A stretch of 64,000 bases of DNA from an uncultured Bacteroidota bacterium (GCA_903844645.1 CAIMUP010000013.1:1428-65427); one strand, 5' to 3'. Counted from the stretch's first letter, positions 1-62,242 are shown. Notes: generated by a model from the letters alone, not told the origin. Numbers and translations are program-made.

Positions 1-1791
1 CACTTGTTCGGTTTCTTCTCGATATTTAATTCCGATGCTATCAATTCCGTGGAATTAATCAAAGGCGGAATGCCTGCACAATATGGTGGTCGGCTTGCCT
101 CGGTCTTGGATATTTCGATGAAGGAAGGCAACAATCAATCCTTCCATGTGGATGGAGGCATCGGGGTGATTGCATCGCGCCTCACCATCCAGGGACCTAT
201 CGAAAAGAACAAATGTTCGTTCATTATTTCTGCAAGACGGACTTATATTGATGTGCTTGCCGCACCGTTCATCAGCAATTCCTCGCCGTTCAAGGGGAGC
301 GGGTATTTCTTCTATGATTTGAATGCCAAACTGAATTATCAATTCTCGGATAAGGATAAACTTTTCGTCAGTGGGTACTTTGGTCGCGATGTATTTTCTT
401 ATAAGAATTCCGACAATGGTTTCTCTGTAGATATTCCATGGGGCAACACCACCGTTTCGGCTCGTTGGAATCATTTATTCAGCAATAAAGTCTTTATGAA
501 TACCTCGCTGATCTATACCGATTATCAATTCCAATCCAGCTTTACGGAGAGCCAGTTCCAGTTCAGTTTATCTTCCGGCATCCGCGACTTTAATGCCAAG
601 TGGGACTTGAATTATTACCCTAACCTTCGTCATAATATTAAATTCGGAGCGATTTATACCTTCCATATCTTCACCCCGAGTACCATCTCTGGGCAGTCGG
701 GTTCGGTGGTGTTTAATCCTGGCAAACTGCACCTGTATGCCCAAGAGCCTGCCCTGTATGTCAGCGATGATTACGACCTTACTGATAGGATTAAAATTCA
801 TGCAGGCTTGCGGTATTCCGCTTTCCAGCAGATAGGTCCTTATAATTTCTTCCTCCATGATAAAAACGGCTCCATCACGGATACGATTCACTATGCCGAC
901 ATGGCTAACGTAGCTTTTTATCAAGGGTTGGAGCCGCGCGTTTCCATCCGATATTCCATCAATAAAAAGTCATCCCTCAAAGCGGGATATACGATTAACG
1001 ACCAGTACATGCACCTCGTGTCGCTGTCCACGGTTACGCTGCCCACCGATGTTTGGATGCCTACTTCGCAGAAAGTGAAGCCCGAAATCGGTACGCAATA
1101 TTCGATGGGTTACTTCCGAAATTTCAAAAAGGAAACGTACGAAACATCGGTCGAGGTGTATTACAAGGAGATGAAGCACATGATTGATTATGCCGATGGC
1201 TCGACCTACGGCGATAGCTATCAGGACAACTTCGACAAGTCGTTCGTATTTGGCAAAGGATGGTCGTATGGCGTGGAATTATTCATCAAGAAAGACCTCG
1301 GCAAACTGACGGGCTGGATCGGATATACCCTCTCCTATACCAACCGCAACTTCCCTGATAACAACGATTCGATGACCTTCCCCGCGAAGTACGATCGCCG
1401 CCACGATTTATCAGTCGTCGCGAACTATGTTTTCAATGATCATTGGACGTTCTCCAGCCAATTTGTATATGCTACTGGCGATGCGCTGACGGTCGAAACG
1501 GGGCGGTATTTCATCGAAAACCGGATCATGCCGGAATACGGCGCGAGGAATAATTACCGCCTCGACCCATACCATCGCGCCGATGTTTCGGCGACTTATA
1601 TCCGCAAAAAGCATGAGAAATACCAATCGTCCTGGACGTTCTCGATCTACAATGTGTACAACCGCCACAATCCGTATTTCATCTACCCCTCTACGTATGG
1701 CAGCACGGTGTTGAATAACCTGAAATTAACCGAAAAGGAGGTTTCCTTATTCCCGATTCTGCCTTCCGTCACCTGGAATTTTAAGTTTTAA
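1..1791 (+). CDS. TonB-dependent receptor, C-terminal part (5' end lies outside the window)
   Basis: The ORF is open to the window edge. It has a plug/barrel-type motif (SVELIKGGMPAQYGGR), a long alternating beta-strand pattern and a terminal aromatic ...TWNFKF typical of TBDR barrels. Confidence 0.85.
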   Translation, partial: HLFGFFSIFNSDAINSVELIKGGMPAQYGGRLASVLDISMKEGNNQSFHVDGGIGVIASRLTIQGPIEKNKCSFIISARRTYIDVLAAPFISNSSPFKGSGYFFYDLNAKLNYQFSDKDKLFVSGYFGRDVFSYKNSDNGFSVDIPWGNTTVSARWNHLFSNKVFMNTSLIYTDYQFQSSFTESQFQFSLSSGIRDFNAKWDLNYYPNLRHNIKFGAIYTFHIFTPSTISGQSGSVVFNPGKLHLYAQEPALYVSDDYDLTDRIKIHAGLRYSAFQQIGPYNFFLHDKNGSITDTIHYADMANVAFYQGLEPRVSIRYSINKKSSLKAGYTINDQYMHLVSLSTVTLPTDVWMPTSQKVKPEIGTQYSMGYFRNFKKETYETSVEVYYKEMKHMIDYADGSTYGDSYQDNFDKSFVFGKGWSYGVELFIKKDLGKLTGWIGYTLSYTNRNFPDNNDSMTFPAKYDRRHDLSVVANYVFNDHWTFSSQFVYATGDALTVETGRYFIENRIMPEYGARNNYRLDPYHRADVSATYIRKKHEKYQSSWTFSIYNVYNRHNPYFIYPSTYGSTVLNNLKLTEKEVSLFPILPSVTWNFKF

Positions 1792-1850: not shown

Positions 1851-2047
1851 CAAATGATTATTAGCGGAGCTCGAATAGGTATTAGAGGAGCTCAAATGGT
1901 TATTAGAGGAGCTCGAATAGGTATTAGAGGAGTTCGAATAGGTATTAGAGGAGTTCGAATAGGTATTAGAGGAGCTCTAATAGGTATTAGAGGAGCTCAA
2001 ATAGGTATTGGAAGAGCTCAAATAGGTATTAGAGGAGCTCAAATTCC
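1851..2047. repeat. Array A: 21-bp tandem repeat, about 9.4 copies
   Basis: The unit is cgaataggtattagaggagct. Unit starts were hand-indexed at 1851, 1872, 1893 ... 2019. It lies between the TBDR stop (1791) and the DUF4249 start (2078). Confidence 0.95.
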
Positions 2048-4042: not shown

Positions 4043-4345
4043 AGGCATTAGGAAAAAAAGCAGGGCATCAAATTACCCAATTTCATACCTTAAGTTTTTG
4101 CTCAAGGCATCACATTACCCGATGTGTGGGGTTGAGCAAAAACTTAATGCTTCACATCATCCAATTTGGAGGTATGGGAAAAAAAGTAATGCCCCACATT
4201 ACCCGATTTTGGGGTATGGCAAAAAACCTAATGCCCCACATTACCCAATGTGATGGTATGGCAAAAAACCTAATGCCCCACCTTACCCAATGCGGGGGTA
4301 TGAGCAAAAAAGTAGTGCCTCACATTACCTAATGTGGGGGTGTGA
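4043..4345. repeat. Array B: 42-bp tandem repeat, about 7 copies, each with an internal hairpin
   Basis: The unit is gccccacattacccaatgtgatggtatggcaaaaaacctaat. The anchor gc(a/c/t)(t/c)cac falls at 4065, 4107, 4149, 4191, 4233, 4275 and 4317, a spacing of exactly 42. Each unit contains the dyad cacatt-accc-aatgtg. Confidence 0.95.
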
Positions 4346-8652: not shown

Positions 8653-8718
8653 AAAAATAAAATGAAAAACTATTGCTTTCGGTTTAGGAAAAATGCAGGG
8701 CGGTTTAGCTTTTATATT

Positions 8719-8926
8719 GACCTGTTTAAAGTTTATGTCGGTCTGTTTAAAGTTTGTATCGGTCTGTTTAAAGTTTAAACAGGTCTGTTTAAAGTTTGTA
8801 TCGGTCTGTTTAAAGTTTAAACAGGTCTGTTTAAAGTTTAAACAGGTCTGTTTAAAGTTTGTATCGGTCTGTTTAAAGTTTAAACAGACCTGTTTAAAAT
8901 TTGTACAGACCTGTTTAAAAACTATA
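8719..8926. repeat. Array C: 21-bp tandem repeat, about 10 copies, two alternating variants
   Basis: The units are ggtctgtttaaagtttgtatc and ggtctgtttaaagtttaaaca, starting at 8719, 8740 ... 8908. Junctions of the b-type variant create the 9-bp inverted repeat tttaaacag-gt-ctgtttaaa. Confidence 0.95.
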
Positions 8927-26507: not shown

Positions 26508-27665
26508 ATGAAAAGAATTGTGTTTATTATTCTCATGGCATGCGGTTATTTTGCCGCCTATGCACAACCTTCCAATGTTCAGAGTGCTTGGAGGTATCTT
26601 GGTTACAAAGAATTCGACAAAGCAAAGGAGATGATTGATCCTGCCATTACTAATGACAAGACAAAGAACTCTTCCAAGACCTGGTATTACCGTGGTTTGA
26701 TTTATGAGGGTTTCTATGACACCATTAAGTATGATGTTGCCTCCTTGACTACTGCTGTGGAGAGTTATAAGAGGTCCTTGGAGCTTGATAAGAGTGATTA
26801 TGCCGATGAAATAAAGACCCGCTTTCTTATTATCAACATCGAATTCTTTCAGGCAGGTATGAAAATGTACGGAACTAAACGCTTCGATGTTGCGCTGAAG
26901 GCTTTTCAGGGCGTTATCTTGATCAATCCTACCGATTCAGGTGCGATGAAGAACGCGGCAATATGTGCCTGGAAGGGAAACAACAACGCACTCGCCAAAG
27001 AGTATTATGCGAAGCTTATTCAGATGAACTTCAACGATATTTCCATCTATTCTTCCCTCGGTTCCTTGTATTTGGAGGACAAAGACAGCACCAAATATTA
27101 CGAAACCATCAAGGCGGGGAGGACAAGATACCCTGCCAACACCGATTTCATGAACCTCGAGGTCGCGTATCTTATCGCGGCGAACAAATCTAATGATGCC
27201 ATCGAGGGTTTGAAAGCAATATTGAACAAAAACCCTAACGATACGACCATGTTATTCGCCTTGGCGAGCATTTACGACAAGCTCTCGGTGGATTACAGCA
27301 AGAAGGGCGACATGAACGAGTTCCAAAAGAACTTTTCATTAGCCGAAGAGACTTATAAAAAGGCTATCGAGGTGAAGCCGGATTACTTCAAAGCGAACTT
27401 CAACCTCGGCGCACTCTATATCAATATCGCGGTGGATATGATTAACAAAGCGAACGACATTCCTACTGATAAAAACAAGGAATATGAAGCCGCGAAAGCT
27501 AAATACGAAGTCATTTTGCGCCAGGCAAAGCCTTATTTCGAGAAGGCATTAGACTTGCAGCCTAAAGATGAAGGTACATTGACCGCACTACGTCAACTTT
27601 ATGCTCATTTGAACATGACGGACAAGGCGCAGGAGATGAAAAAGCGCCTCGAAGGTAACAAATAA
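26508..27665 (+). CDS. tetratricopeptide-repeat protein
   Basis: It has a signal peptide and repeated TPR-like helices (WYYRGLIYE..., ALASIYDK..., NLGALYIN...). Confidence 0.75.
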   Translation: MKRIVFIILMACGYFAAYAQPSNVQSAWRYLGYKEFDKAKEMIDPAITNDKTKNSSKTWYYRGLIYEGFYDTIKYDVASLTTAVESYKRSLELDKSDYADEIKTRFLIINIEFFQAGMKMYGTKRFDVALKAFQGVILINPTDSGAMKNAAICAWKGNNNALAKEYYAKLIQMNFNDISIYSSLGSLYLEDKDSTKYYETIKAGRTRYPANTDFMNLEVAYLIAANKSNDAIEGLKAILNKNPNDTTMLFALASIYDKLSVDYSKKGDMNEFQKNFSLAEETYKKAIEVKPDYFKANFNLGALYINIAVDMINKANDIPTDKNKEYEAAKAKYEVILRQAKPYFEKALDLQPKDEGTLTALRQLYAHLNMTDKAQEMKKRLEGNK

Positions 27666-27710
27666 AGCTTAAACATTCGTGCATTCAGAACAAACAACCT
27701 GGATGTTTGT

Positions 27711-27935
27711 TTAATGAGCAGTATTGTCATTAGCAGGTGCTGACCCGCCGGCAGATTGAATACCCCAGCCGTTTTGTTCGGTACCAATCATGATATAATT
27801 ATCCCCGCTGGCATTGTCGGTAAAGGTAACGGTTTCCGTGCCATCAGGGGCGATGGTAGCAGATTGGATAATGATGTTTTTTCCACTCGTGTGCACTCCT
27901 ATTGATAGGAGAATTGCAAGGATAATTTCTAACAT
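27711..27935 (-). CDS. possible small secreted protein
   Basis: The internal Met gives 74 aa with a signal-like MLEIILAILLSIGVHT. The longer ORF (to 28058) has an implausible N-terminus. Confidence 0.35.
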   Translation of the reverse strand: MLEIILAILLSIGVHTSGKNIIIQSATIAPDGTETVTFTDNASGDNYIMIGTEQNGWGIQSAGGSAPANDNTAH

Positions 27936-28142
27936 AGCTTGTAGTTTATAGTAATTTTTTACAAAAATAGGGATTGTTTTTACACTATCCAAATTTATTT
28001 CAAAAAATGTTTCACTAATCCGCTTCGTCGTATTGTTGCGCCGCGAAAGCGGATGCATTCATACGACGATGATGGTATTAAATACGACCATCCATACCAT
28101 TCTCTGAAAGAGTATCTTTGCATCCTTAATAATAATAAAGGT

Positions 28143-28646
28143 ATGAAGATAAATTTTATATTGGATGGGTTCGATTTTGATGATACCCACCAGGCTCATC
28201 AGGTGTTTGAGAATATTGGGCAAGAGATGGGGAGGGTAATTACCGATAAATTGCGCCATTTGGTGGGCTTTCAGGATGAGCATGGTCAGTTTGGCGGCAC
28301 GATAGAGATTCATGCGAGCATTCATGGTCCTGATTTGAACAAAGCAGATACCGCCCAATATAATAAGGAGTACGATTACTATTTTGATGTTCAGGATGCA
28401 GACCATATTGTGGTCGTTCCGAAGAAAAAAGGTGGTACCAATCCTGATAATATTACCAAAACGGAGAAGACTTATCTGCAAGAAATGATTGATGGTACTT
28501 CCAATAAAATTATTGCTGATGATCATGACAAAAATATAGAAACGGTGAAGTCAAACAAGAAAAGTATTCGATTTAAGACTAAATGCAAGACTCCGGGGGA
28601 CTTGAAAAAATACGTTGATAAACATAAACTCTTATTAAAAGAATAA
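28143..28646 (+). CDS. small protein with a C-terminal LuxR/GerE-type HTH and an unrecognised N-terminal domain
   Basis: The C-terminus ITKTEKTYLQEMIDGTSNKIIADDHDKNIETVKSNKKSIRFK fits the GerE pattern (T-x-x-E...L...G-x-SNK-x-IA......TVK......I..K). The start was set at the MKINF Met. Confidence 0.55.
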   Translation: MKINFILDGFDFDDTHQAHQVFENIGQEMGRVITDKLRHLVGFQDEHGQFGGTIEIHASIHGPDLNKADTAQYNKEYDYYFDVQDADHIVVVPKKKGGTNPDNITKTEKTYLQEMIDGTSNKIIADDHDKNIETVKSNKKSIRFKTKCKTPGDLKKYVDKHKLLLKE

Positions 28647-28850
28647 TTCACCCTTTTGAGGGATTGTTTTAGGAACTAATACCTTGTAATTTTGCATCCT
28701 TAATTACAAACAATGGATCATTACAATCACATAGCGAATACAACGGATAGCAATCACGACAGAGGCAATGCTTCTGGAAGGTTTTTCAATGGTGGCGGTA
28801 GTGATATGGATACAAATTGTAGTTTAAACATATGCCAAAAAAACTCAAAC

Positions 28851-29102
28851 ATATCTTTTAGTAACAATAAGATACCTTTTAGTAACAATAAGATACCTTT
28901 TAGTAACAATAAGATACCTTTTAGTAACAATAAGATACCTTTTAGTAACATAAAGATATGTTTTAGTAACAAAAAGATACCTTTTAGTAACAAAAAGATA
29001 CCTTTTAGTAACAAAAAGATACCTTTTAGTAACAAAAAGATATGTTTTAGTAACAAAAAGATACCTTTTAGTAACAATAAGATATGTTTTAGTTTTTCTC
29101 AC
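28851..29102. repeat. Array E: 21-bp tandem repeat, about 12 copies
   Basis: The unit is ataccttttagtaacaataag, with variants atatg... and ...aaaaag. Starts fall at 28851, 28872 ... 29082. Confidence 0.95.
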
Positions 29103-29205
29103 CATAGTAAAAGCAATAGTTGCTATGGTGATGGGTCTTTTCAGAATGCCCACCCCTCTCCCTTGTATTCAAAACCAAGTAGTAACATAATAAAATAACA
29201 ATAAA

Positions 29206-29973
29206 ATGAGTCTATTAAAATTAGTATTAGTAAAAATTTCTATCTTCATGATCATCACGAAGGCTTCCATCATGAGGCAGTACCTTTTAGATTGTGTCAG
29301 TGCGGGTTCTGCCTCCACTTTGTATGCCAATCCGGCTATTACCACTGCCTTTTATACCTCGATGACGAATGCTGCGGCTGCCATTCAGACAGCGGTAACA
29401 GTTTGTGCGGCGAACAACACGAAGGCAAACAGGGATGCCATTAAAGATGCTATCGCAGCAGGAAAAGTGGTCGCGGCAAGCTATGCTTCGCAAGTTCAGG
29501 TGATTGCCAATCTCCCTATTAATGCCGCTACCCGCGAGGCAGCAAAGACAAATATTGAACAATCGCATCTGACGGCACAAAAATTAAATCAAACAACCAT
29601 AGGAATACCCGAAACCCCTGTATTAACGGGCGAAAATAACGGCATCGGCAAGATAAAAGTAAAGGTTACCAATCCTGGCGTATCGTATGACCCTAAAACT
29701 ATTATTTTTGTTGCTGTTTCCCTGCCCATAGTGCCTGTAACGGTGCCGCCAACACCTCCTCCGGCTGACCCCGTAGTTACGCTCATAGCAGGACAAGTGA
29801 TGGTAAAGACTTCCGTGGCATGCGAAGTGATAACCATCACCCAGGATGGCAAAGGAAGAGAGGTAGATTTGGTTGGATTGACTGCCGGCACTCGCTTTTC
29901 CATCTCTGCCTACACAAAAAATGGCAATAAATTGGTGAGCGTATTGTCGAACGCTATTATCGTACAGGCATAA
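29206..29973 (+). CDS. orphan protein P3 (array-fronted, unknown function)
   Basis: This 255-aa ORF has an Ala-rich helical N-terminal half, a Pro-rich linker (PVTVPPTPPPADP) and a beta-rich Ig/Fn3-like C-terminus. It shares a weak N-terminal motif with P1 (KAS..., YANP...AF). Confidence 0.6.
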   Translation: MSLLKLVLVKISIFMIITKASIMRQYLLDCVSAGSASTLYANPAITTAFYTSMTNAAAAIQTAVTVCAANNTKANRDAIKDAIAAGKVVAASYASQVQVIANLPINAATREAAKTNIEQSHLTAQKLNQTTIGIPETPVLTGENNGIGKIKVKVTNPGVSYDPKTIIFVAVSLPIVPVTVPPTPPPADPVVTLIAGQVMVKTSVACEVITITQDGKGREVDLVGLTAGTRFSISAYTKNGNKLVSVLSNAIIVQA

Positions 29974-30044
29974 AAGGCGGAAAAGGATACTTTCAGGAAA
30001 TTTTGTATCTTTGCCACGAATAAATTGATACTAAAGCTGCCGCA

Positions 30045-30272
30045 ATGAGAAAAATAACCTTAGAGTTACCTGATTCTGTTGAATTAAATGACCAAGAAGT
30101 GGCATTATTAGTAGCCGCAAGTTTCTATGAACATGGAAAACTTTCATTAGGACAAGCCGCCGAACTGGTAGGTCTATCCAAACGGGCTTTTATGGAAGTA
30201 TTGGGCAAGTATGGAGTATCTATATTTAATTATCCTGCCTCCGACCTGTCGAGAGATGTAAAGAATGCATAA
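30045..30272 (+). CDS. UPF0175-family antitoxin-like protein
   Basis: This 75-aa protein has the motif GKLSLGQAAELVGLSKRAFMEVLGKYGV, and its stop overlaps the start of the next gene by 8 nt. Confidence 0.75.
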   Translation: MRKITLELPDSVELNDQEVALLVAASFYEHGKLSLGQAAELVGLSKRAFMEVLGKYGVSIFNYPASDLSRDVKNA

Positions 30273-30720
30273 AACAATAGTCTCGGACACGAGTTGTTTT
30301 ATCATCTTTACTAATATTGGGGAATTAGATTTGCTATTTCAGACTTATGGGCAGATAATTACTACCAAAGAAGTCGCTTTAGAATACGGCGAAGAGCTTC
30401 CTGATTGGGTAATTATCAAAGAAGCTAATGATAAAGACTTTCAACATAACCTGGAGAAGAAAATTGATAAAGGAGAAGCCAGTGCCATTGCCTTAGCAAT
30501 AGAAATTATGGATTGTACCATCATTCTTGATGATTATAAAGCCCGGCAAGTGGCAGAACAATTGGGTCTTGATATCACAGGAACGATAGGTGTTATCATT
30601 AAAGCAAAATTAAATGGAATAATACCTTCTATTATACCCTATCTGGATAAAATTAGTAAGACAGATTTCAGAATAACGGATGAACTTAAAGAACAAGCCC
30701 TCACAGAAGCTGGAGAATGA
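30265..30720 (+). CDS. DUF3368 / PIN-like nucleic-acid-binding toxin-like protein
   Basis: This 151-aa protein has an N-terminal IVSDTSCFI acidic/PIN-like start and a GEASAIALA motif. Pairing with UPF0175 is a classic arrangement. Confidence 0.75.
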   Translation: MHKTIVSDTSCFIIFTNIGELDLLFQTYGQIITTKEVALEYGEELPDWVIIKEANDKDFQHNLEKKIDKGEASAIALAIEIMDCTIILDDYKARQVAEQLGLDITGTIGVIIKAKLNGIIPSIIPYLDKISKTDFRITDELKEQALTEAGE

Positions 30721-30768
30721 TAGTACAAAAGAATAAGTATCTTTGCGCCCTCATAAAATGAACTAACT

Positions 30769-32100
30769 ATGTTTGATAATCTAAGTGATAAGCTCGAAAG
30801 AGCATTCAAAGTCCTGAAAGGGCATGGTAAAATCAGCGAATTAAATGTCGCCGAAACCACCAAAGAGATACGGAAAGCATTGCTCGATGCCGATGTTAAT
30901 TATAAAGTAGCCAAAACCTTCACCGACACGGTTAAAGAGAAGGCATTAGGACAGAATGTGCTCACTTCCCTGACTCCCGGGCAGCTGTTAATCAAGATAA
31001 CTCACGATGAACTTGCCAATCTAATGGGCGGCGAGATGCAAGAGATCAATATGAAGGGTAGCCCTACGGTTATCCTGATGTCGGGCTTGCAAGGAAGTGG
31101 TAAAACGACGCTCTCCGGTAAGCTCGCGTACTATTTAAAGAACAAAAAAGGCAAAAGCCCTATGATGGTCGCCTGCGATGTCTATCGTCCTGCCGCTATC
31201 ACCCAATTAACCGTGCTGGGAGAACAAATAGGCGTCCCTGTTTACTCTGAATTAGAGAATAAAAACCCTGTAGACATCGCCAGGAATGGTATCAAAGCCG
31301 CGAAAGATAAAGGCTGCAACGTAGTCATCATTGATACCGCCGGTCGCCTCGCTGTTGATGAACAAATGATGGCAGAAATCGTCGCCATTAAGTATGCTAT
31401 CAACCCCAGCGAAATACTTTTTGTCGTAGATGCGATGACCGGGCAAGATGCAGTGAATACGGCTAAAACATTCAATGATAGATTAGACTTCGACGGTGTC
31501 ATCTTAACCAAATTAGATGGTGATACTCGCGGCGGAGCAGCCTTATCTATCAAAACCGTAGTGAATAAACCCATCAAGTTCGTCGGAACTGGCGAAAAGA
31601 TGGATGCACTCGAGCCGTTCTATCCCGCGCGGATGGCAGACAGGATACTCGGCATGGGAGATATTGTATCGTTGGTCGAACGTGTGCAAGATCAGATCAG
31701 CGAAGAGGAAGCCGATGCCATGACGAAGAAGATGATGAAGGGAGAACTAACCTTTGCCGACATGCTTTCGCAGATAAATCAGGTAATGAAGATGGGGAAT
31801 ATCAAAGAACTGGCATCCATGCTGCCCGGCGTAGGCAAACAGTTGAAGAATGTGGATATTAGTAATGAAAAGTTTAAGCCTGTTATCGCCATCATACAAT
31901 CCATGACTCCCGATGAACGCAATTGCAAGGTGAAGTTAGACACACGCCGCAAAAGCAGGATAGCAAAGGGCAGCGGCACCACTCCCACCCAAATGAATGA
32001 TTTGATAGCATCCCTCGACAATGCTAAAAAGCAAGCCAAGATGATGACCTCCCCTCAAAACATGAGGAACATGGAGAACATGATGAATAGGAAAAGGTAA
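30769..32100 (+). CDS. ffh: signal recognition particle protein
   Basis: It has the NG domain with GLQGSGKTT, DTAGR and TKLDGD, plus a Met-rich M domain. Confidence 0.95.
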   Translation: MFDNLSDKLERAFKVLKGHGKISELNVAETTKEIRKALLDADVNYKVAKTFTDTVKEKALGQNVLTSLTPGQLLIKITHDELANLMGGEMQEINMKGSPTVILMSGLQGSGKTTLSGKLAYYLKNKKGKSPMMVACDVYRPAAITQLTVLGEQIGVPVYSELENKNPVDIARNGIKAAKDKGCNVVIIDTAGRLAVDEQMMAEIVAIKYAINPSEILFVVDAMTGQDAVNTAKTFNDRLDFDGVILTKLDGDTRGGAALSIKTVVNKPIKFVGTGEKMDALEPFYPARMADRILGMGDIVSLVERVQDQISEEEADAMTKKMMKGELTFADMLSQINQVMKMGNIKELASMLPGVGKQLKNVDISNEKFKPVIAIIQSMTPDERNCKVKLDTRRKSRIAKGSGTTPTQMNDLIASLDNAKKQAKMMTSPQNMRNMENMMNRKR

Positions 32101-37950: not shown

Positions 37951-38202
37951 ATGAATATCTTTTGCTTCGGGATGAATATCCTTTGCTTCGGGATGAATAT
38001 CCTTTGCTTCGGGATGAATATCCTTTGCTTCGGGGTGAATATCTTTTGCTTCGGGGTGAATATCTTTTGCTTCGGGATGAATATCCTTTGCTTCGGGATG
38101 AATATCCTTTGCTTCGGGATGAATATCTTTTGCTTCGGGATGAATATCTTTTGCATCGGGATGAATATCTTTTCATCCGGCTTCAATACATTTTCATCCC
38201 GG
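37951..38202. repeat. Array G: 21-bp tandem repeat, 12 copies
   Basis: The unit is atgaatatcctttgcttcggg. Starts fall at 37951, 37972 ... 38182. It lies between the terminator at 37870-37908 and the ppiC-type gene at 38399. Confidence 0.95.
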
Positions 38203-38358
38203 GTTAATGTCTTACATGAACTTTTCCCCGTTATAAAACCCGATTTGGAGGGGTAAAAAGGGAGGTTTTTGGAAATTCTCCACCCTCCATTTCCCACTTT
38301 TAAGTCTCCATTCCCCATTTTCCATTCCCCATTCTTTTTCCATTGTCAGGAAATTTTA

Positions 38359-38366
38359 TAGTTTTG
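38359..38366 (+). promoter_or_regulatory. candidate -7 box (TAnnTTTG) for the ppiC-surA-moxR gene block
   Basis: The sequence tagttttg lies 33 nt upstream of the ATG at 38399 and downstream of array G. Confidence 0.4.
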
Positions 38367-41251: not shown

Positions 41252-41277
41252 TAAAATGGACAAAAAGATGCTTTTTC

Positions 41278-41445
41278 TATTAAATACGACTACAATGATG
41301 CCGTCATCTCCTACAATGATAGCGTCATCTACTACAATTATGCCGTCATCTACTACAATTATGCCGTCATCTACTACAATGATGGCGTCATCTACTACAA
41401 TTATGCCGTCATCTACTACAATGATGGCAACTTCGACTACACATT
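41278..41445. repeat. Array H: 21-bp tandem repeat, 8 copies
   Basis: The unit is tgccgtcatctactacaatta. Starts fall at 41278, 41299 ... 41425. The array ends 15 bp before the surA-like ATG (41460). Confidence 0.95.
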
Positions 41446-41459
41446 TATTACATTAATTC

Positions 41460-42830
41460 ATGAAAATAATCAAAAATATAACGGGAATTTTTTTCTGCAT
41501 CGCGCTGCTGAATTCCATTGATACCGTGGCGCAGGTGAAAATTCTGGATCAAGTAGCAGGGGTGGTCGGGGATAAGGTGATTCTGCAATCCGACATCGAA
41601 TCGCAATATCAGCAATATATGCTCCAAGGCGGGGTGGATAATCCAGCCATTCGCTGCGAAATTATGTATCAGATGTTGATTAATAAACTGCTCCTGAATC
41701 AAGCAATATTAGATAGCGTAGAAGTTTCGGGCACGGCTGTAGAGGAGGAATTGGATAAACGGATGCGGTATTATATCTCCCAAATCGGCTCGCAAAAGTT
41801 GCTGGAGGAACGTATGGGAAAATCGGTATTGGAGCTGAAAGCCGACTTCAGAACGCTGATTAAAGACCAGATGCTGACGCAACAAATGCAACAAAAAATT
41901 ACGAAAGATGTGAATGCCTCGCCATCGGATGTGAAAAGTTATTACGAACACATCCCGAAGGATAGTTTGCCGAGGGTAGAATCGGAATTTGAGATACAAC
42001 AAATCGTTCGGCATATAGAAGTTACCGATGAGCAAAAAAAGGAAGTGAAGGATAAATTGGAAGGTTATAAACAAGAGATTTTGAAGGGTACTCGGGACTT
42101 TGTCGCCACTGCCGTTTTATACTCTCAAGACCCCGGTACTACTAAAAAAGGCGGTGAATTAGGCTTCTTCGGGAGGGGCGATATGCAACCTGCTTTTGAG
42201 GCTGCCGCATTCCGCCTTCGTCCGGGTGAAATATCGGATATTATTGAAACGCCGTTCGGGTATCACATCCTGCAATTGATTGAAAGAAGGGGCGAACAGA
42301 TTAATGTCAGGCATATCTTATTACATCCAAAAGTAAGCGATGATAATATTGACAAAGCGAGTAAATTTTTGGATAGTTTGAAGACGGAAATTAATAATAA
42401 AACCATCACCTTTGCCGATGCGGCGATGAAATTCTCTGATGATGCAGATACCAAGAACAATGCCGGACTGATGCAAAATGTGCAGGATGGAACAACCAAA
42501 TTTGAGGCTACCACGATGGATAAAACCCTGTTCTTCCAGATAGATAAATTGAGCATCGGGGAGCTATCGAAGCCTGTATCTTATTCTGACAGAGAGGGCA
42601 AGGCTTCGTTGCGGGTATTGATGGTGAAATCGAAAACAGCTCCGCATACCGCGAACTTGAAAGACGATTATCAGAAGATTCGCGGGGCGGCTTTGCAGGA
42701 GAAACAGAACCTCGCCTTGCTGGATTGGGTGAAGAAGAAGCGTGCTAATACGTTTGTGAATATCACGAAAGATTATCGCAAGTGCGATGCCATAAAGGAC
42801 TGGTTGAAGAATACCGCAACAACGAATTAA
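41460..42830 (+). CDS. surA: SurA-like periplasmic chaperone / peptidyl-prolyl isomerase
   Basis: It has a signal peptide, a SurA N-domain-like region and the parvulin motif FGYHILQL. Confidence 0.85.
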   Translation: MKIIKNITGIFFCIALLNSIDTVAQVKILDQVAGVVGDKVILQSDIESQYQQYMLQGGVDNPAIRCEIMYQMLINKLLLNQAILDSVEVSGTAVEEELDKRMRYYISQIGSQKLLEERMGKSVLELKADFRTLIKDQMLTQQMQQKITKDVNASPSDVKSYYEHIPKDSLPRVESEFEIQQIVRHIEVTDEQKKEVKDKLEGYKQEILKGTRDFVATAVLYSQDPGTTKKGGELGFFGRGDMQPAFEAAAFRLRPGEISDIIETPFGYHILQLIERRGEQINVRHILLHPKVSDDNIDKASKFLDSLKTEINNKTITFADAAMKFSDDADTKNNAGLMQNVQDGTTKFEATTMDKTLFFQIDKLSIGELSKPVSYSDREGKASLRVLMVKSKTAPHTANLKDDYQKIRGAALQEKQNLALLDWVKKKRANTFVNITKDYRKCDAIKDWLKNTATTN

Positions 42831-43868: not shown

Positions 43869-44162
43869 CGGCTGTTGATTGGAGAAAGTCGGCTGTTGAT
43901 TGGGGAAAGTTGACTGTTGATTGGGGAAAGTCGGCTGTTGATTGGGGAAAGTCGGCTGTTGATTGGGGAAAGTTGACTGTTGATTGGGGAAAGTCGGCTG
44001 TTGATTGGGGAAAGTCGGCTGTTGATTGGGGAAACATGGACGTAGATTGGGGAAACATGGACGTAGATTGCGGAAACATGGACGTAGATTGGGGAAACAT
44101 GGAGGTAGATTGTAGAAACATGGAGGTAGATTGCAGAAACATGGAGGTAGATGGGTTTTACA
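43869..44162. repeat. Array I: 21-bp tandem repeat, 14 copies in two subfamilies
   Basis: It has 8 units of (c/t)g(g/a)ctgttgattggggaaagt, arranged cgg,cgg,tga in a 63-bp higher order. Six units of tgga(c/g)gtagattgnngaaaca follow. Starts fall at 43869 ... 44142. Confidence 0.95.
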
Positions 44163-49926: not shown

Positions 49927-50162
49927 CCGACCGGATTTGGGAAAGATGCGGTCGGATATTTCCTTTCTCCGGTCGGATATTTCTTTTTTCCGGTCGGATA
50001 TTTCTTTTTTCCGGTCGGATATTTCTTTTTTCCGGTCGGATATTTCTTTTTTCCGGTCGGATATTTCCTTTTTCCGGTCGGAGATTTCTTTTTTCCGGTC
50101 GGAGATTTCCTGTTTCCGGTCGGAGATTTCCTTTTTCCGGTCGGATATTTCCCGTTACCGAC
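49927..50162. repeat. Array J: 21-bp tandem repeat, about 11 copies
   Basis: The unit is ccggtcggatatttctttttt. The anchor ggtcgga falls at 49950, 49971, 49992 ... 50139. It lies between dgkA and the alpha-oxoamine synthase gene. Confidence 0.95.
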
Positions 50163-50299
50163 CATTAATTTTTGGCTGATTAACGGAAGAAAATATATCT
50201 TTGACCCCTTACCAAAAAAATGAAGCCGCAAAAAGCGATTCCGAAGGACATAAAATGAATGAAACAAAACATAATAGTAAACTTAAAACAGACAGATAA

Positions 50300-51691
<1,392 letters not shown>

Positions 51692-51721
51692 ATCCCAAAT
51701 AACCTTAATAATGATATAATT

Positions 51722-52849
51722 ATGGAAATAACAATCAAAAAAGTCGAAAACGGAGCCGATAAGAAGAAGTTTATTGACTTCGTTCATGATTTATATGCCG
51801 ATGATCCGAACTATGTGCCTGAACTTTACATGGCGCAAAGCGATTTGATGAATCCTAAGAAGAATCCTTTCTTTTGGCATTCCAAGGCGGATCTTTTTCT
51901 TGCTGAACGCGATGGAAAAGTGGTAGGAAGAATCGCCGCCATAAGGAATAATAATTATAATGAATACGCGAAAACCAAAGTCGGCTTCTTCGGGTTCTTC
52001 GATGTTATAAATGATTATGAAGTGGCTAAGAAATTACTCGATACCGCTAACGATTGGATTAAAAAGGAAGGCTTGACGGACATTATAGGACCTACAAATT
52101 TCTCTACCAATGAAACTTGCGGCTTATTAGTAGAAGGTTTGGATTCTGCGCCTGTAATTATGATGACTTATAACAAGGCTTATTACAAAACCTTCTTAGA
52201 TAAATATGGTTTTACTAAGCAAATGGACCTGATTGCATACGTCCTGGACCCGATGGATATGCCGGAAAAGCTATTGCGATTAGCAAAAGGGATTGAGGAG
52301 CGTTTGAAGAGAAGAAACATTACCGTCCGCAAGATAAATATGAAGGATTTTAACAACGAAGTAGCCAAAGTAAAGGAAATTTATAATGCTGCCTGGGATA
52401 AAAATTGGGGTTTTGTGCCGATGACGGATGACGAATTCAAATTCCAGGCTAAGGATATGAAAATGATATTAGATAAAGACTTCGCGTATGTAGCCGAAGA
52501 CAACGGAAAGGTCATCGCGTTCTCATTAACTATTCCGAATGTGAACGAGGTGTTCAAAACCATCAAGCGGGGCAGGTTATTCCCGACGGGGCTGTTAAAA
52601 TTAGTATTAAATAAGAGCAAAATATCCAGCGTACGTGTGATTACATTGGGGGTGTTGGAGGAATATCGGAAGCTGGGTATAGACGTCGTGTTTTATGCTA
52701 AGAACATGGAAACCGCCCAACAGAAAAAACTTAAATATGCAGAGGCTTCCTGGATTTTAGAGAACAATAAGGAGATGAATTCTCCCTTAATTTCCATCAA
52801 TGCGAAGCCTTATAAAACATATCGTATCTTTGAGAAGAAGATAGTATGA
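51722..52849 (+). CDS. GNAT-like acyl-CoA N-acyltransferase superfamily protein (tentative)
   Basis: This 375-aa protein has an N-terminal region (…LAERDGKVVGRIAA…GFFGFFD) that resembles acyltransferase folds. Its stop overlaps the next start (ATGA). Confidence 0.55.
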   Translation: MEITIKKVENGADKKKFIDFVHDLYADDPNYVPELYMAQSDLMNPKKNPFFWHSKADLFLAERDGKVVGRIAAIRNNNYNEYAKTKVGFFGFFDVINDYEVAKKLLDTANDWIKKEGLTDIIGPTNFSTNETCGLLVEGLDSAPVIMMTYNKAYYKTFLDKYGFTKQMDLIAYVLDPMDMPEKLLRLAKGIEERLKRRNITVRKINMKDFNNEVAKVKEIYNAAWDKNWGFVPMTDDEFKFQAKDMKMILDKDFAYVAEDNGKVIAFSLTIPNVNEVFKTIKRGRLFPTGLLKLVLNKSKISSVRVITLGVLEEYRKLGIDVVFYAKNMETAQQKKLKYAEASWILENNKEMNSPLISINAKPYKTYRIFEKKIV

Positions 52850-54558: not shown

Positions 54559-54579
54559 ACGAAAAGGATAGTAAAAGCT

Positions 54580-54748
54580 GTTATCACGATAGTTATTGTT
54601 GTTATCACAATGGTAAAAGCGGTTATCACAATAGTTATTGCTGTTATCACAATAGTTATTGTAGTTATCACAATAGTTATTGCAGCTATTACAATTGTAA
54701 AAGCAGTTATTATAATAGCTATAACAGTATTCACGATAGCGATGACAA
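54580..54748. repeat. Array L: 21-bp tandem repeat, 8 copies
   Basis: The unit is gttatcacaatagttattgct. Starts fall at 54580, 54601 ... 54727. Related, degenerate reverse-orientation copies lie at about 54390-54450. Confidence 0.85.
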
Positions 54749-57781: not shown

Positions 57782-58026
57782 ATAATTTGGGGCGAAATTA
57801 GTATAATTAAGGATAATAATATGATGAAGTATTTGATAAAAATAAGGATGACAAAAGGAATGCTACACGACAAATTATTTTTTCATAAACTTCAGATTCA
57901 TCTACTAAATGACTACAATTTTTATCTAATAATTTGGAGAATTAATGCCTGCAAAACGGAACAAATTAAGAGCATAAAAATGTGGCTTCTTTGGAATAAA
58001 ATTCTGAATAAGAGGGATTCCGACTC

Positions 58027-58152
58027 GGCTGCGAATGATTTCGTCGTGACTGCGACTATTTTCATCATGACTGCGACCATTTCCGACTAGATTGCGACTA
58101 TTTTCATCGTGACTGCGACCATTTCCGACTAGATTGCGACCATTTTCATCGG
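58027..58152. repeat. Array M: 21-bp tandem repeat, 6 copies with a 42-bp higher order
   Basis: The units gactgcgaccatttccgacta and gattgcgactattttcatcgt alternate. Starts fall at 58027 (degenerate), 58048, 58069, 58090, 58111 and 58132. Confidence 0.9.
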
Positions 58153-61929: not shown

Positions 61930-62242
61930 CCAAAAGTCGAGATATTGAAACAATGAATCGTACCCATTAACCACTTAATTGAAGTGAAAGACTATTTTAG
62001 TATAATGAATGACTCATTAAGTATAATGAAAGACTATTTTAGTATAATGAATGACTAAAACACTAATATGAAAGACTAATTACCAGACATGAAAGACCAC
62101 TTCATGTCTGGCAATTAGTCTTTCATATTAGTGAATTAGTCTTTTACCTTAATAAAGTAGTTAATCATTATACTAAAATAGTCTTTCACTTCAATTAAGT
62201 GGTTAATGGGTACGATTCATTGTTTCAAGGTCTCGACTTGGA
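61930..62242. repeat. Element N: roughly 313-bp nested imperfect palindrome built from the GAAAGAC motif on a 21/42-bp lattice
   Basis: The outer arms match over about 65 bp perfectly (61945-62009 vs 62165-62229), with imperfect extension to 61930 and 62242. The inner 33-bp stem (62061-62094 / 62101-62133) has one mismatch. GAAAGAC starts at 61986, 62028, 62070 and 62091, and GTCTTT(C/T) starts at 62118, 62139 and 62181. Confidence 0.9.

Follow-up and report, generated by a model that had tools for sequence, protein, structure and literature searches.

An undescribed Bacteroidota gene cassette in which a 21-bp tandem array lies in frame within a small open reading frame upstream of an FN3 protein gene

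The subject of this analysis is a segment of about 3 kb (positions 27,711 to 30,720) that lies between a TPR gene and ffh in a 64,000-nucleotide stretch of DNA, termed here the window, from an uncultured Bacteroidota bacterium (GCA_903844645.1 CAIMUP010000013.1:1428-65427). A preceding sequence-only reading had taken this segment as a single accessory islet, and every item that it named was found at the coordinates it gave, namely a small minus-strand gene, a gene for a helix-turn-helix (HTH) protein of the LuxR/GerE type, a 21-bp tandem array (array E), a gene termed P3 and a toxin-antitoxin pair (Table 1). The unity of the islet did not hold up: the best explanation of the segment is that three independent units lie side by side, these being the minus-strand orphan gene, a module composed of the HTH gene, an open reading frame (ORF) of 161 codons (ORF161) and P3, and the toxin-antitoxin pair. 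The module appears to represent a rare and mobile cassette of Bacteroidota with the general layout regulator gene, promoter, small ORF with an in-frame 21-bp array, and P3. In the following, W denotes the cassette locus of the window, L-numbers denote contigs or lineages of relatives, and P-numbers such as P0103 denote protein clusters.

Table 1. Positions of the features of the window and of the related loci discussed in the text
Feature	Position	Strand	Basis or remark
TPR gene	26508-27665		left flank; Pfam match above cut-off
Orphan small gene, 74 aa from internal ATG	27711..27935	-	ORF list; mechanical ORF extends to 28058
HTH gene -7 box, TATCTTTG	28113..28120	+	TAnnTTTG match, 23 nt ahead of ATG 28143
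167-aa regulator, LuxR/GerE (NarL-type) HTH at about residues 100-160	28143..28646	+	weak but consistent HTH matches
Terminator-like hairpin, CCCTTTTGAGGG, with T-rich tail	28651..28670	+	sequence and fold; directly past HTH stop codon
Predicted ORF161-P3 operon promoter in inverted repeat	28684..28709	+	-7 box TAATTTTG (28687-28694) within perfect 8-bp repeat TTGTAATT-N10-AATTACAA
ORF161, 161 aa, first cistron	28713..29198	+	ORF list; stop 7 nt before P3 ATG
Array E, 21-bp unit AAAGATACCTTTTAGTAACAA, 11.8 copies	28847..29093	+	Tandem Repeats Finder score 396, 92% matches, no indels
P3, 255 aa	29206..29973	+	helical domain (about residues 11-130), Pro-rich linker, C-terminal FN3
Toxin-antitoxin operon -7 box, TATCTTTG	30006..30013	+	32 nt ahead of ATG 30045
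UPF0175 antitoxin, 75 aa	30045..30272	+	PF03683, 69 bits (cut-off 27.9); PADLOC PDC-S70, E 2.6e-6
DUF3368 / COG2405 PIN-like toxin, 151 aa	30265..30720	+	PF11848, 48.2 bits (cut-off 27.3); PDC-S70, E 4e-38
ffh	30769-32100		right flank; SRP54 domains, E 1e-75
Eleven further arrays of the window	1859-2044, 4111-4341, 8711-8919, 37951-38213, 41289-41426, 43869-44152, 49949-50152, 51563-51690, 54568-54722, 58018-58151, 61985-62200
Second P3 paralog (P0103)	L115: array 55-186, P3 paralog 270-1028		own 21-bp array, unit GATTTAAGACTAAATCTTTCG
Gene after P3, product of ~350 aa	L094 10806-11879; L100 3414-4475; L103 3314-4348
Mobile segment of 1145 bp	L106 4765-5909 vs L108 5635-6778 and L107 3388-4531
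Scaffold breaks or N gap at arrays	L001 9068-9167; end of L084; start of L001		short-read scaffolds

ORF161 comprises 45 unique codons, about 12 heptads (NNKIPFS, NKKIPFS or NKKICFS) and 35 further unique codons, a count that agrees with the earlier remark that this frame spans the gap between the HTH gene and P3 with non-repeat codons included. The unit of array E equals 7 codons in the frame of ORF161, and the array begins 134 nt past the ATG of this ORF and about 150 nt past the -7 box. The flanks of the array within ORF161 show no clear sign of decayed repeats (lag-21 z of 1.0 on the left and 2.6 on the right, with few matches to the array consensus), which makes a shuffle null that keeps the repeats a fair one; in such shuffles of the window locus a spanning ATG-initiated ORF arises in 4.5%. 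A hairpin just past the array (29099-29131) has a z of -2 and was not noticed in the sequences of relatives. The exact 161-aa sequence is missing from the protein collection searched and has accordingly been reported by no gene caller. Short-read contigs of the window strain break within array E, and in same-strain short-read scaffolds (99.9-100% identity with the window) the 21-bp arrays are exactly where breaks or an N gap fall (Table 1). Short-read assemblies thus break systematically at array loci, which are thereby lost from, or collapsed in, metagenome assemblies.

The -7 promoter box of Bacteroidota has the consensus TAnnTTTG, and matches to it stand 19-32 nt before the starts of the HTH gene, ORF161, the antitoxin gene, ffh (30738) and the internal ATG of the minus-strand gene. 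The promoter layout of the HTH gene is likewise seen ahead of ffh, the antitoxin gene and gyrA. The HTH gene would form a separate transcription unit closed by the terminator-like hairpin; this hairpin was not reported by the terminator scan, and G+C-rich hairpins with other stems occupy the equivalent place in L086 (CCCCC/GGGGG) and L091 (CACCC/GGGTG). P3 has an A-rich tract ahead of its ATG. It has no -7 box of its own, which argues that ORF161 and P3 are co-transcribed, probably as one two-gene transcript from the promoter at 28687. The -7 box of this promoter, of the housekeeping type of Bacteroidota, stands 19 nt before the ATG of ORF161 and is enclosed by an inverted repeat that occurs once in the window. 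The whole element (TTGTAATTTTGCATCCTTAATTACAA) is the same at 26 of 26 bases in L086-L090, where the HTH protein is only 60% identical. Its core TGTAATTTTGC is also retained in L100 and L091, and in W, L086 and L100 it closely precedes the repeat ORF. The inner TTTGCAnCCnnAAT also stands ahead of gyrA and two other genes, which marks it as a generic feature of promoters; only the arms of the palindrome are specific, and these are degenerate in L091. A different, ECF-like (extracytoplasmic function) motif, GGCAC-N16/17-(C)GTCTAA, lies just ahead of the repeat ORF in L092 (9700-9734) and L103 (1385-1426), the upstream gene of both being an ECF sigma factor. With this motif immediately ahead of the repeat ORF, the 5' leader would be very short or missing.

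The P3 family is rare, with about 65 representatives among 1.84 billion proteins. No paralog of P3 was found in the window, in keeping with its earlier description as an orphan; the metagenome samples that contain the window strain also contain a second P3 paralog (P0103), 41% identical, which has a 21-bp array of its own (Table 1). An array of period 21 or 42 is present upstream of P3 in all 14 lineages with readable upstream DNA. The distance from array to P3 ATG is 55-121 bp in all of these except L113, where 3.2 clear copies are left about 510 bp upstream of P3, inside a 203-codon ORF with lag-21 periodicity. When the same repeat finder and thresholds were applied to 1.4 Mb from 80 other Bacteroidota as a control, ten arrays of any period were recovered, and none of period 21, 42 or 63. 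The repeat units differ among lineages, and only those of the sister pair L092/L103 are recognizably related. Thus, in L086-L090, which are soil-metagenome relatives identified through the HTH protein, the order of HTH gene, G+C-rich hairpin, promoter, ATG-initiated ORF with a 21-bp array and 256-aa P3 homolog is the same, and the unit (ATTATTCTCTAGAGAAAAGTC) is unrelated to that of the window; L091 has a third, again different unit. Searches of virus, phage and plasmid collections (IMG/VR, INPHARED and PLSDB) gave no match to P3, and BFVD gave generic FN3 matches only. The HTH protein, ORF161 and P3 have no PADLOC match, and no membership in a defence system was found for them. In three lineages P3 is followed by a gene for a protein of about 350 aa with the N-terminus MELL(I/V), which is missing from the window and has no match in NCBIfam, PHROG or PADLOC and no precomputed Pfam match.

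Frames across 21-bp arrays are open in about a third of cases, so an open frame alone says little. The coding test asked for an ATG-initiated ORF that starts at least 10 codons ahead of the array and runs through it, judged against shuffles that keep the repeat structure. Such an ORF was found on the P3 strand in 11 of 13 lineages and on the opposite strand in none of the 13; the per-locus shuffle probabilities are 0.02-0.18 and the joint tail P is 1.1e-11. This comparison strongly supports the coding interpretation of array E, which the sequence-only reading had left formally open; the array, which it had viewed as intergenic and adjoining a regulator, instead lies inside a conserved ORF, downstream of the promoter. 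Across the lineages the repeat ORFs measure 86-203 aa, their stops lie 1-34 nt from the next start, and their ATGs are close behind the promoter in lineages with differing promoter types. Even in L113, where the array has decayed to 47% lag-21 identity (z = 6), the 203-codon ORF is still open and ends 11 nt before P3. A further measure, the avoidance of stop codons inside arrays (0 against 6 expected), was dropped as circular, the frames having been picked for openness.

Within arrays, variants fall on codon positions 1, 2 and 3 in nearly equal numbers (56, 56 and 59), and the synonymous share of changed codons is 20%, against 23% expected. The repeat peptide thus drifts as if neutral, and purifying selection on it is not seen; so what selection appears to keep is where the array sits, its period of 21 bp (7 codons) and a frame that is open from the ATG until shortly ahead of P3, and not the repeat peptide. 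Ahead of the repeats, a block ..EKIDNKKAGMQ.. is common to L086, L094, L105 and L116, with L086 separated from its subgroup (the L094 group) by a one-codon indel, and a motif M.(H/Y)(Y/N)NHIA.T is common to the N-termini of the window ORF and L100. An nhmmer profile of the conserved leader block retrieved its own subgroup only, and no conserved RNA structure was found in the leader of the repeat ORFs.

The arrays change in length by whole units in relatives of the window. In five samples of one species the distance from HTH stop to P3 start is 379 bp (L087), 400 bp (L086, L088 and L090) or 421 bp (L089), so that the copy number differs in steps of one unit. The related units of the sister arrays (ISHKSLL in one, ISEKFLR in the other of L092/L103) indicate that arrays are inherited and diverge, rather than being reinvented. 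The repeat ORF and P3 also move together: a 1145-bp segment that takes in the promoter, the repeat ORF and P3 recurs at 99.8% identity in two genomic contexts (Table 1), one of them after a sigma-factor gene and the other not, the homology extending from the sigma stop codon to the P3 stop. Its ends are sharp, and no transposase or terminal repeats were seen. A regulator gene lies directly upstream for most P3 homologs, which bears out the proposed link of P3 to a regulator. The regulator belongs to several types, namely an HTH protein of 165-167 aa (W, L086 and L091), an ECF-type or sigma-like factor (L092, L094, L103, L108 and L116), a 70-aa GerE protein (L112) and a short putative HTH-like protein recognized by eye only and without a family match (L097 and L110), with no upstream regulator in L100 and L106. 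Against TIGR02937 (cut-off 42.9), the L092 sigma factor scores above the threshold with 49.2 bits and that of L094 just below it with 42.1 bits. A dedicated transcription factor would thus appear to be a usual but exchangeable accessory of the cassette.

The 167-aa regulator of the window, for which the sequence-only reading had proposed a C-terminal LuxR/GerE HTH, does show weak but consistent matches to this domain in its C-terminal half, and none of any kind in its N-terminal half. The Pfam GerE model (PF00196, cut-off 23.5) gives 21.0 bits (E 2.5e-4) over residues 133-179 of a 197-aa ORF, NCBIfam models of response-regulator C-termini give E-values from 4.9e-6 (MctR) to 0.04, and NarL and EvgA in the PDB give E 0.025. 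The C-terminal ~60 aa align to the DNA-binding domains of NarL, EvgA, VraR and GerE, and a homolog, P0003, has a precomputed PF00196 match. The AlphaFold2 model of the protein is of low confidence (pLDDT 65). This family is tiny, with only 5 clusters of homologs among 5.8 billion proteins and no paralog within the window, and conservation is about twice as high in its HTH half as in the N-terminal half (invariant columns 32/68 vs 24/99). Four of the five clusters could be examined for their surroundings, and in the three with readable DNA (W, L086-L090 and L091) a 21-bp array follows the HTH gene, which supports the earlier proposal that HTH gene, array E and P3 belong together; in the fourth, P0005, what comes after the HTH gene is an ORF of 146 aa or more.

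The putative reading helix of the HTH protein (E133-R143, ETVKSxKKSIR) is nearly invariant across the 5 homologs, and no relation is seen among the array units of W, L086 and L091 beyond a common 5-mer AAAAG, which is in reverse orientation in the window. The near-invariance of this helix in the face of differing arrays suggests that the HTH protein acts at the promoter, and the complete identity of the 26-bp element between lineages whose HTH proteins are 60% identical points to the promoter palindrome as its target. This palindrome is therefore a candidate HTH operator by its conservation, and the protein more likely acts there than on the array.

Array E is one of 12 tandem arrays in the 64 kb of the window, all of period 21 or 42. 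The other 11 (period 21, one of them 42) have units that are all different, and lie in spacers beside unrelated housekeeping genes; no flanks or motifs shared among the window arrays were found beyond chance. The notion that the genes following the other arrays form a class of 'P genes' was rejected, as these are unrelated housekeeping genes (peptidylprolyl isomerases, an aminotransferase, a GNAT protein, dipeptidyl peptidase IV and RibBA). Spanning ATG-initiated ORFs are found in 7 of the 22 array-strand combinations of these 11 arrays, against 2.1 expected (P 0.002). An ORF of 96 aa (1791-2081, 97 codons with the stop, heptads IRGAQIG) spans array A; its ATG overlaps the upstream TAA (TAATG), its TGA overlaps the ATG of a DUF4249 gene at 2078 (ATGA), and it looks like a translationally coupled 'bridge' ORF. 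An ATG-initiated ORF over array G (41256-41456, heptads TTIMPSS) has its stop 3 nt before the ATG of a SurA-like gene at 41460. Array J (window 51498-51760, heptads AGKDDNY) shares its reading frame with the preceding aminotransferase gene and the following GNAT gene, a TAA (51542-51544) being the only stop between these two, and its unit derives from the C-terminus of the aminotransferase (..HAGDDDNL*). Arrays F (37951-38213) and I (49949-50152) precede the -7 boxes of the genes that come next (TAGTTTTG at 38359 and TATCTTTG at 50196), so that 21-bp arrays are found both in places expected to be transcribed and upstream of promoters.

Arrays of period 42 with inverted repeats in the unit occur in the window (4111-4341, between convergent genes), L094 (4245-4519) and L113 (2638-2867), examples of the inverted repeats being CACATT..AATGTG and TTTTACAG..CTGTAAAA, and these may belong to the same repeat class as a variant able to form hairpins. 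Short tandem repeats of 7 bp and 14 bp are also seen (L107 2507-2569, L086 2436-2474 and window 38305-38335), so every repeat period observed is a multiple of 7. No length below 21 bp combines a whole number of codons (7 in this case) with two helical turns. A curvature wedge model, with provisional parameters, predicts for random units a compaction peak at period 21 (0.20) compared with 0.02-0.03 at 18 or 24. The unit of array E lies at the 96th percentile of its own shuffles for curvature, and the units as a set are not more curved than shuffles (Kolmogorov-Smirnov p 0.13).

Given these observations, we lean towards the view that array E is the in-frame repeat core of the translated first cistron of an ORF161-P3 operon, and that ORF161 serves as a leader or spacer cistron of variable length. 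Maintenance of the frame suggests that ORF161 is translated, and the free drift of the repeat peptide favours a leader or spacer over other kinds of cistron. Translation of ORF161 would be needed for proper expression of P3, either to stop the long 5' region from exerting polarity or to bring ribosomes to the A-rich start of P3; two published studies describe the ribosomes of Bacteroidia as doing without Shine-Dalgarno pairing (PMC7797042, PMC9976891). The HTH protein, where present, would act on the conserved promoter palindrome and not on the array. Several points weigh against this interpretation. Transcription and translation of ORF161 are both predictions from sequence; two lineages, L097 and L111, lack a clean spanning ORF, and gene callers are inconsistent, a minus-strand ORF having been called in L089 and the ORF161 of the window being missing from the protein collection. 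A length of 86-203 aa is long for a regulatory leader. In the conserved N-terminal block the third codon positions are as conserved as the others, possibly reflecting a nucleotide rather than a peptide signal. The A-rich tract is a normal, stop-rich start region, and the closeness of ORF stop and P3 start may hence be automatic and no evidence of coupling. Finally, array M and the 42-bp array at 4111 lie in no ORF, yet keep the strict 21-bp period; since ORF-free and promoter-upstream arrays share this period, translation is not the whole explanation of it.

The alternative that the product of ORF161 is itself functional, either as a fast-evolving heptad-repeat partner of P3 (whose repeats might, for example, form short beta-strands that dock on the helical or FN3 domain of P3) or as the precursor of a heptapeptide in many copies, in which variable repeated cores follow a conserved N-terminal leader and to which the upstream regulator would respond, strikes us as unlikely, albeit with a fair amount in its favour. 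It would account for the conservation of the ORF in 11 of 13 lineages, its constant pairing and movement with P3 and the succession of a conserved N-terminal motif and hypervariable repeats, and 86-203 aa is unremarkable as the size of a small protein. Hydrophobic residues alternate in many heptads (IPF, YSL, FNY, FSF), most heptads include a basic residue, and Leu is retained through different codons between the L092 and L103 units. It sits poorly with the lack of codon-position bias or synonymous excess among within-array changes, and with heptads that show no relation among lineages with P3 proteins of about 50% identity. Inspection by eye reveals no signal peptide, scans of cassette proteins with Pfam, NCBIfam, PHROGs or PADLOC gave no protease, transporter or modifying enzyme, and regulators of several unrelated types fit poorly to a cognate receptor. 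A purely mutational origin, in which the arrays are the functionless output of a lineage-specific 21-bp amplification and only in-frame, stop-free versions survive in the P3 leader because these cause no polarity, is in our judgement improbable. The abundance of 21-bp arrays in intergenic settings of all kinds in the window and in L094, their absence from the 1.4-Mb control, the seemingly neutral drift of the peptide and the growth of array J from the 3' end of a neighbouring gene are all as this explanation would have it, and the arrays of the window that are in no ORF or stand upstream of promoters hint at a mutational process with a 21-bp step. The presence of an array before P3 in 14 of 14 lineages, including L092 where it is the sole 21-bp array in 20 kb, argues instead for retention by selection at the P3 site. 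The array has been kept through divergence (L092/L103) and through decay (L113); moreover, we know of no mutational mechanism with a 21-bp step.

The view advanced in the sequence-only reading, that array E is a set of iteron-like binding sites through which the HTH protein controls P3, the open frame being incidental, now appears very doubtful. Wherever the DNA around an HTH homolog could be read, the HTH gene does adjoin an array; AAAAG is common to the three HTH-linked units, and palindromic units in L086 (TTCTCTAGAGAA), L105 (GACAATTGTC) and L097 (ATGTACAT) would suit a dimeric HTH protein. Nevertheless, a nearly invariant reading helix is hard to reconcile with unrelated arrays; the array lies downstream of the promoter in an ORF open far beyond chance; the cassette is also found beside ECF sigma factors, beside the 70-aa GerE protein or free of any regulator; no such neighbour accompanies the other 11 window arrays; and the conserved 26-bp promoter palindrome is the better operator candidate. 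That the array acts as curved DNA, with in-phase bends every two turns affecting supercoiling, nucleoid proteins or promoter activity, seems to us most improbable: the wedge-model peak at 21, the ranking of the array E unit among its shuffles and the location of arrays F and I just upstream of promoters agree with it, whereas the units as a set are no more curved than their shuffles, the model parameters are provisional, array E lies downstream of its promoter and the maintained ORF is left unexplained. A broader conjecture, which we regard as doubtful, is that 21-bp arrays are an undescribed class of bacterial repeats with the P3 cassette as their conserved home and possibly their source, the same array-forming process having colonized many spacers in some lineages, the window genome with its 12 arrays in 64 kb included; there the arrays would form translated 'bridge' mini-ORFs between adjacent genes, as in ORF 1791-2081 and array J, or, upstream of promoters, act as curved DNA.

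The two remaining units of the segment are ordinary by comparison with the cassette. A -7 box (TATTTTTG, 27969-27962) 27 nt before ATG 27935 indicates that the 74 aa from this internal ATG are the likely product of the minus-strand gene; its N-terminus is hydrophobic (MLEIILAILLSIGV), and secretion of this product is plausible. No homolog or family was found for it, with no match in Pfam, NCBIfam or PADLOC and a chance-level match only in PHROG (E 0.013), and it is missing from the cassettes of relatives that were examined, which makes it no part of the cassette. The call of a UPF0175/DUF3368 pair proved right, as both domains score above their Pfam cut-offs and the genes are in the expected order, antitoxin first, on the same strand and with an 8-nt overlap. 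UPF0175 is reported exclusively in the company of COG2405 (PMC5499597), and both proteins match PDC-S70, a candidate defence system of PADLOC. In domains, order and possession of its own promoter the pair resembles the type II pairs of UPF0175 (COG2886) and DUF3368 (COG2405, of the PIN-like VapC group) without notable difference. It appears to be an ordinary member of these, unrelated to the array cassette, in which the PIN-like protein would be neutralized by its UPF0175 partner; the antitoxin is itself a predicted DNA binder. The base composition of the segment is not distinct from its surroundings, and a scan of 27600-30800 against Rfam gave a chance-level microRNA match only. The best matches of the flanking ffh in a collection of 185,579 species are Bacteroidota, at 63-70% identity only. 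Within up to 10 kb on each side of ffh in the closest genomes, gyrA and a convincing homolog of the TPR gene are absent, the lone weak TPR match (L005, 37% identity over 102 residues) not being counted as a homolog. Neighbouring genes carry Por_Secre_tail and SprB domains of type IX secretion (T9SS), and these domains, the ffh matches and the -7 boxes together place the organism in the Bacteroidota.

On the whole, these results add two protein families to annotation, namely P3 with its helical domain and FN3, and a small family of regulators. If translation of the repeat ORF does take place and governs how P3 is expressed, the ORF would be a new type of control element, variable in length, for bacteria without Shine-Dalgarno initiation, and would give a handle on the abundance of 21-bp arrays in the window genome. 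No description of the cassette or of lineage-wide 21-bp arrays was found in the literature, and we compared its parts with the known systems that they resemble. The regulator resembles LuxR/GerE proteins (PF00196) in a putative C-terminal HTH of about 60 aa and a candidate inverted-repeat operator close by; it differs from them in an N-terminal domain that is neither a receiver nor an autoinducer-binding domain, in a score below the Pfam cut-off and in the tiny size of its family. The ECF-type or sigma-like genes upstream of five lineages, and the ECF-type promoter motif in L092 and L103, recall ECF sigma operons, whereas the window has no sigma gene, no anti-sigma domain was recognized in the repeat ORF or P3, and the cassette occurs free of regulators as well. 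The N-terminal motifs shared within subgroups and followed by hypervariable heptads might recall precursors of ribosomally synthesized and post-translationally modified peptides (RiPPs) with multiple cores; third codon positions of the motif are, however, as conserved as the others. No RiPP-type enzyme, protease or exporter was matched by P3 or the HTH protein in Pfam, NCBIfam, PHROGs or PADLOC, nor was a RiPP-type match obtained for the 357-aa downstream gene of relatives in NCBIfam, PHROGs, PADLOC or precomputed Pfam.

Iterons and other regulator-binding direct repeats are repeats of 17-22 bp bound by Rep or regulator proteins. The cassette is like these in having tandem direct repeats of about 21 bp beside the gene of a DNA-binding protein, and unlike them in that array E lies within an ORF past the promoter, without a replication gene. 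Neither co-conservation of repeat and protein nor a non-coding position at or upstream of a promoter or origin was found. Another parallel is offered by translationally coupled upstream ORFs and leader peptides, of which attenuation leaders and the erm leader peptides are examples: ORF161 likewise is a first, short cistron that starts a few nucleotides past the predicted transcription start, is poorly conserved in sequence and keeps its frame. It is several times longer than these leaders and contains a tandem array, and no regulatory codons, alternative hairpins or conserved RNA structure were seen. Variable-number tandem repeats (VNTRs) within coding regions, and contingency loci, are represented by the repeat regions of streptococcal and mycoplasma surface proteins. 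With these the cassette has in common a period that is a multiple of 3, near-identical units indicative of concerted evolution, copy changes by whole units and a preserved frame; the period of 21 or 42 is found in 14 lineages and the spanning ORF in 11 of 13, and whole-unit polymorphism in the relatives only. It departs from coding VNTRs in that the repeats reside in an ORF of 86-203 aa without a signal peptide, always right before P3, rather than in a large surface protein, and in that the period is exactly 21 bp despite unrelated units and an unconstrained peptide. The combination of a fixed 21-bp period and an open frame with freely changing sequence over at least 14 lineages is thus unlike the usual accounts of coding repeats, leader peptides or binding arrays. 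Taken together, the cassette with its obligatory tandem array is undescribed as a genetic arrangement and follows a strict 21-bp rule that holds across the whole genome, and the array within it belongs to a kind already known, being a probable coding tandem repeat carried by a small gene upstream of another.

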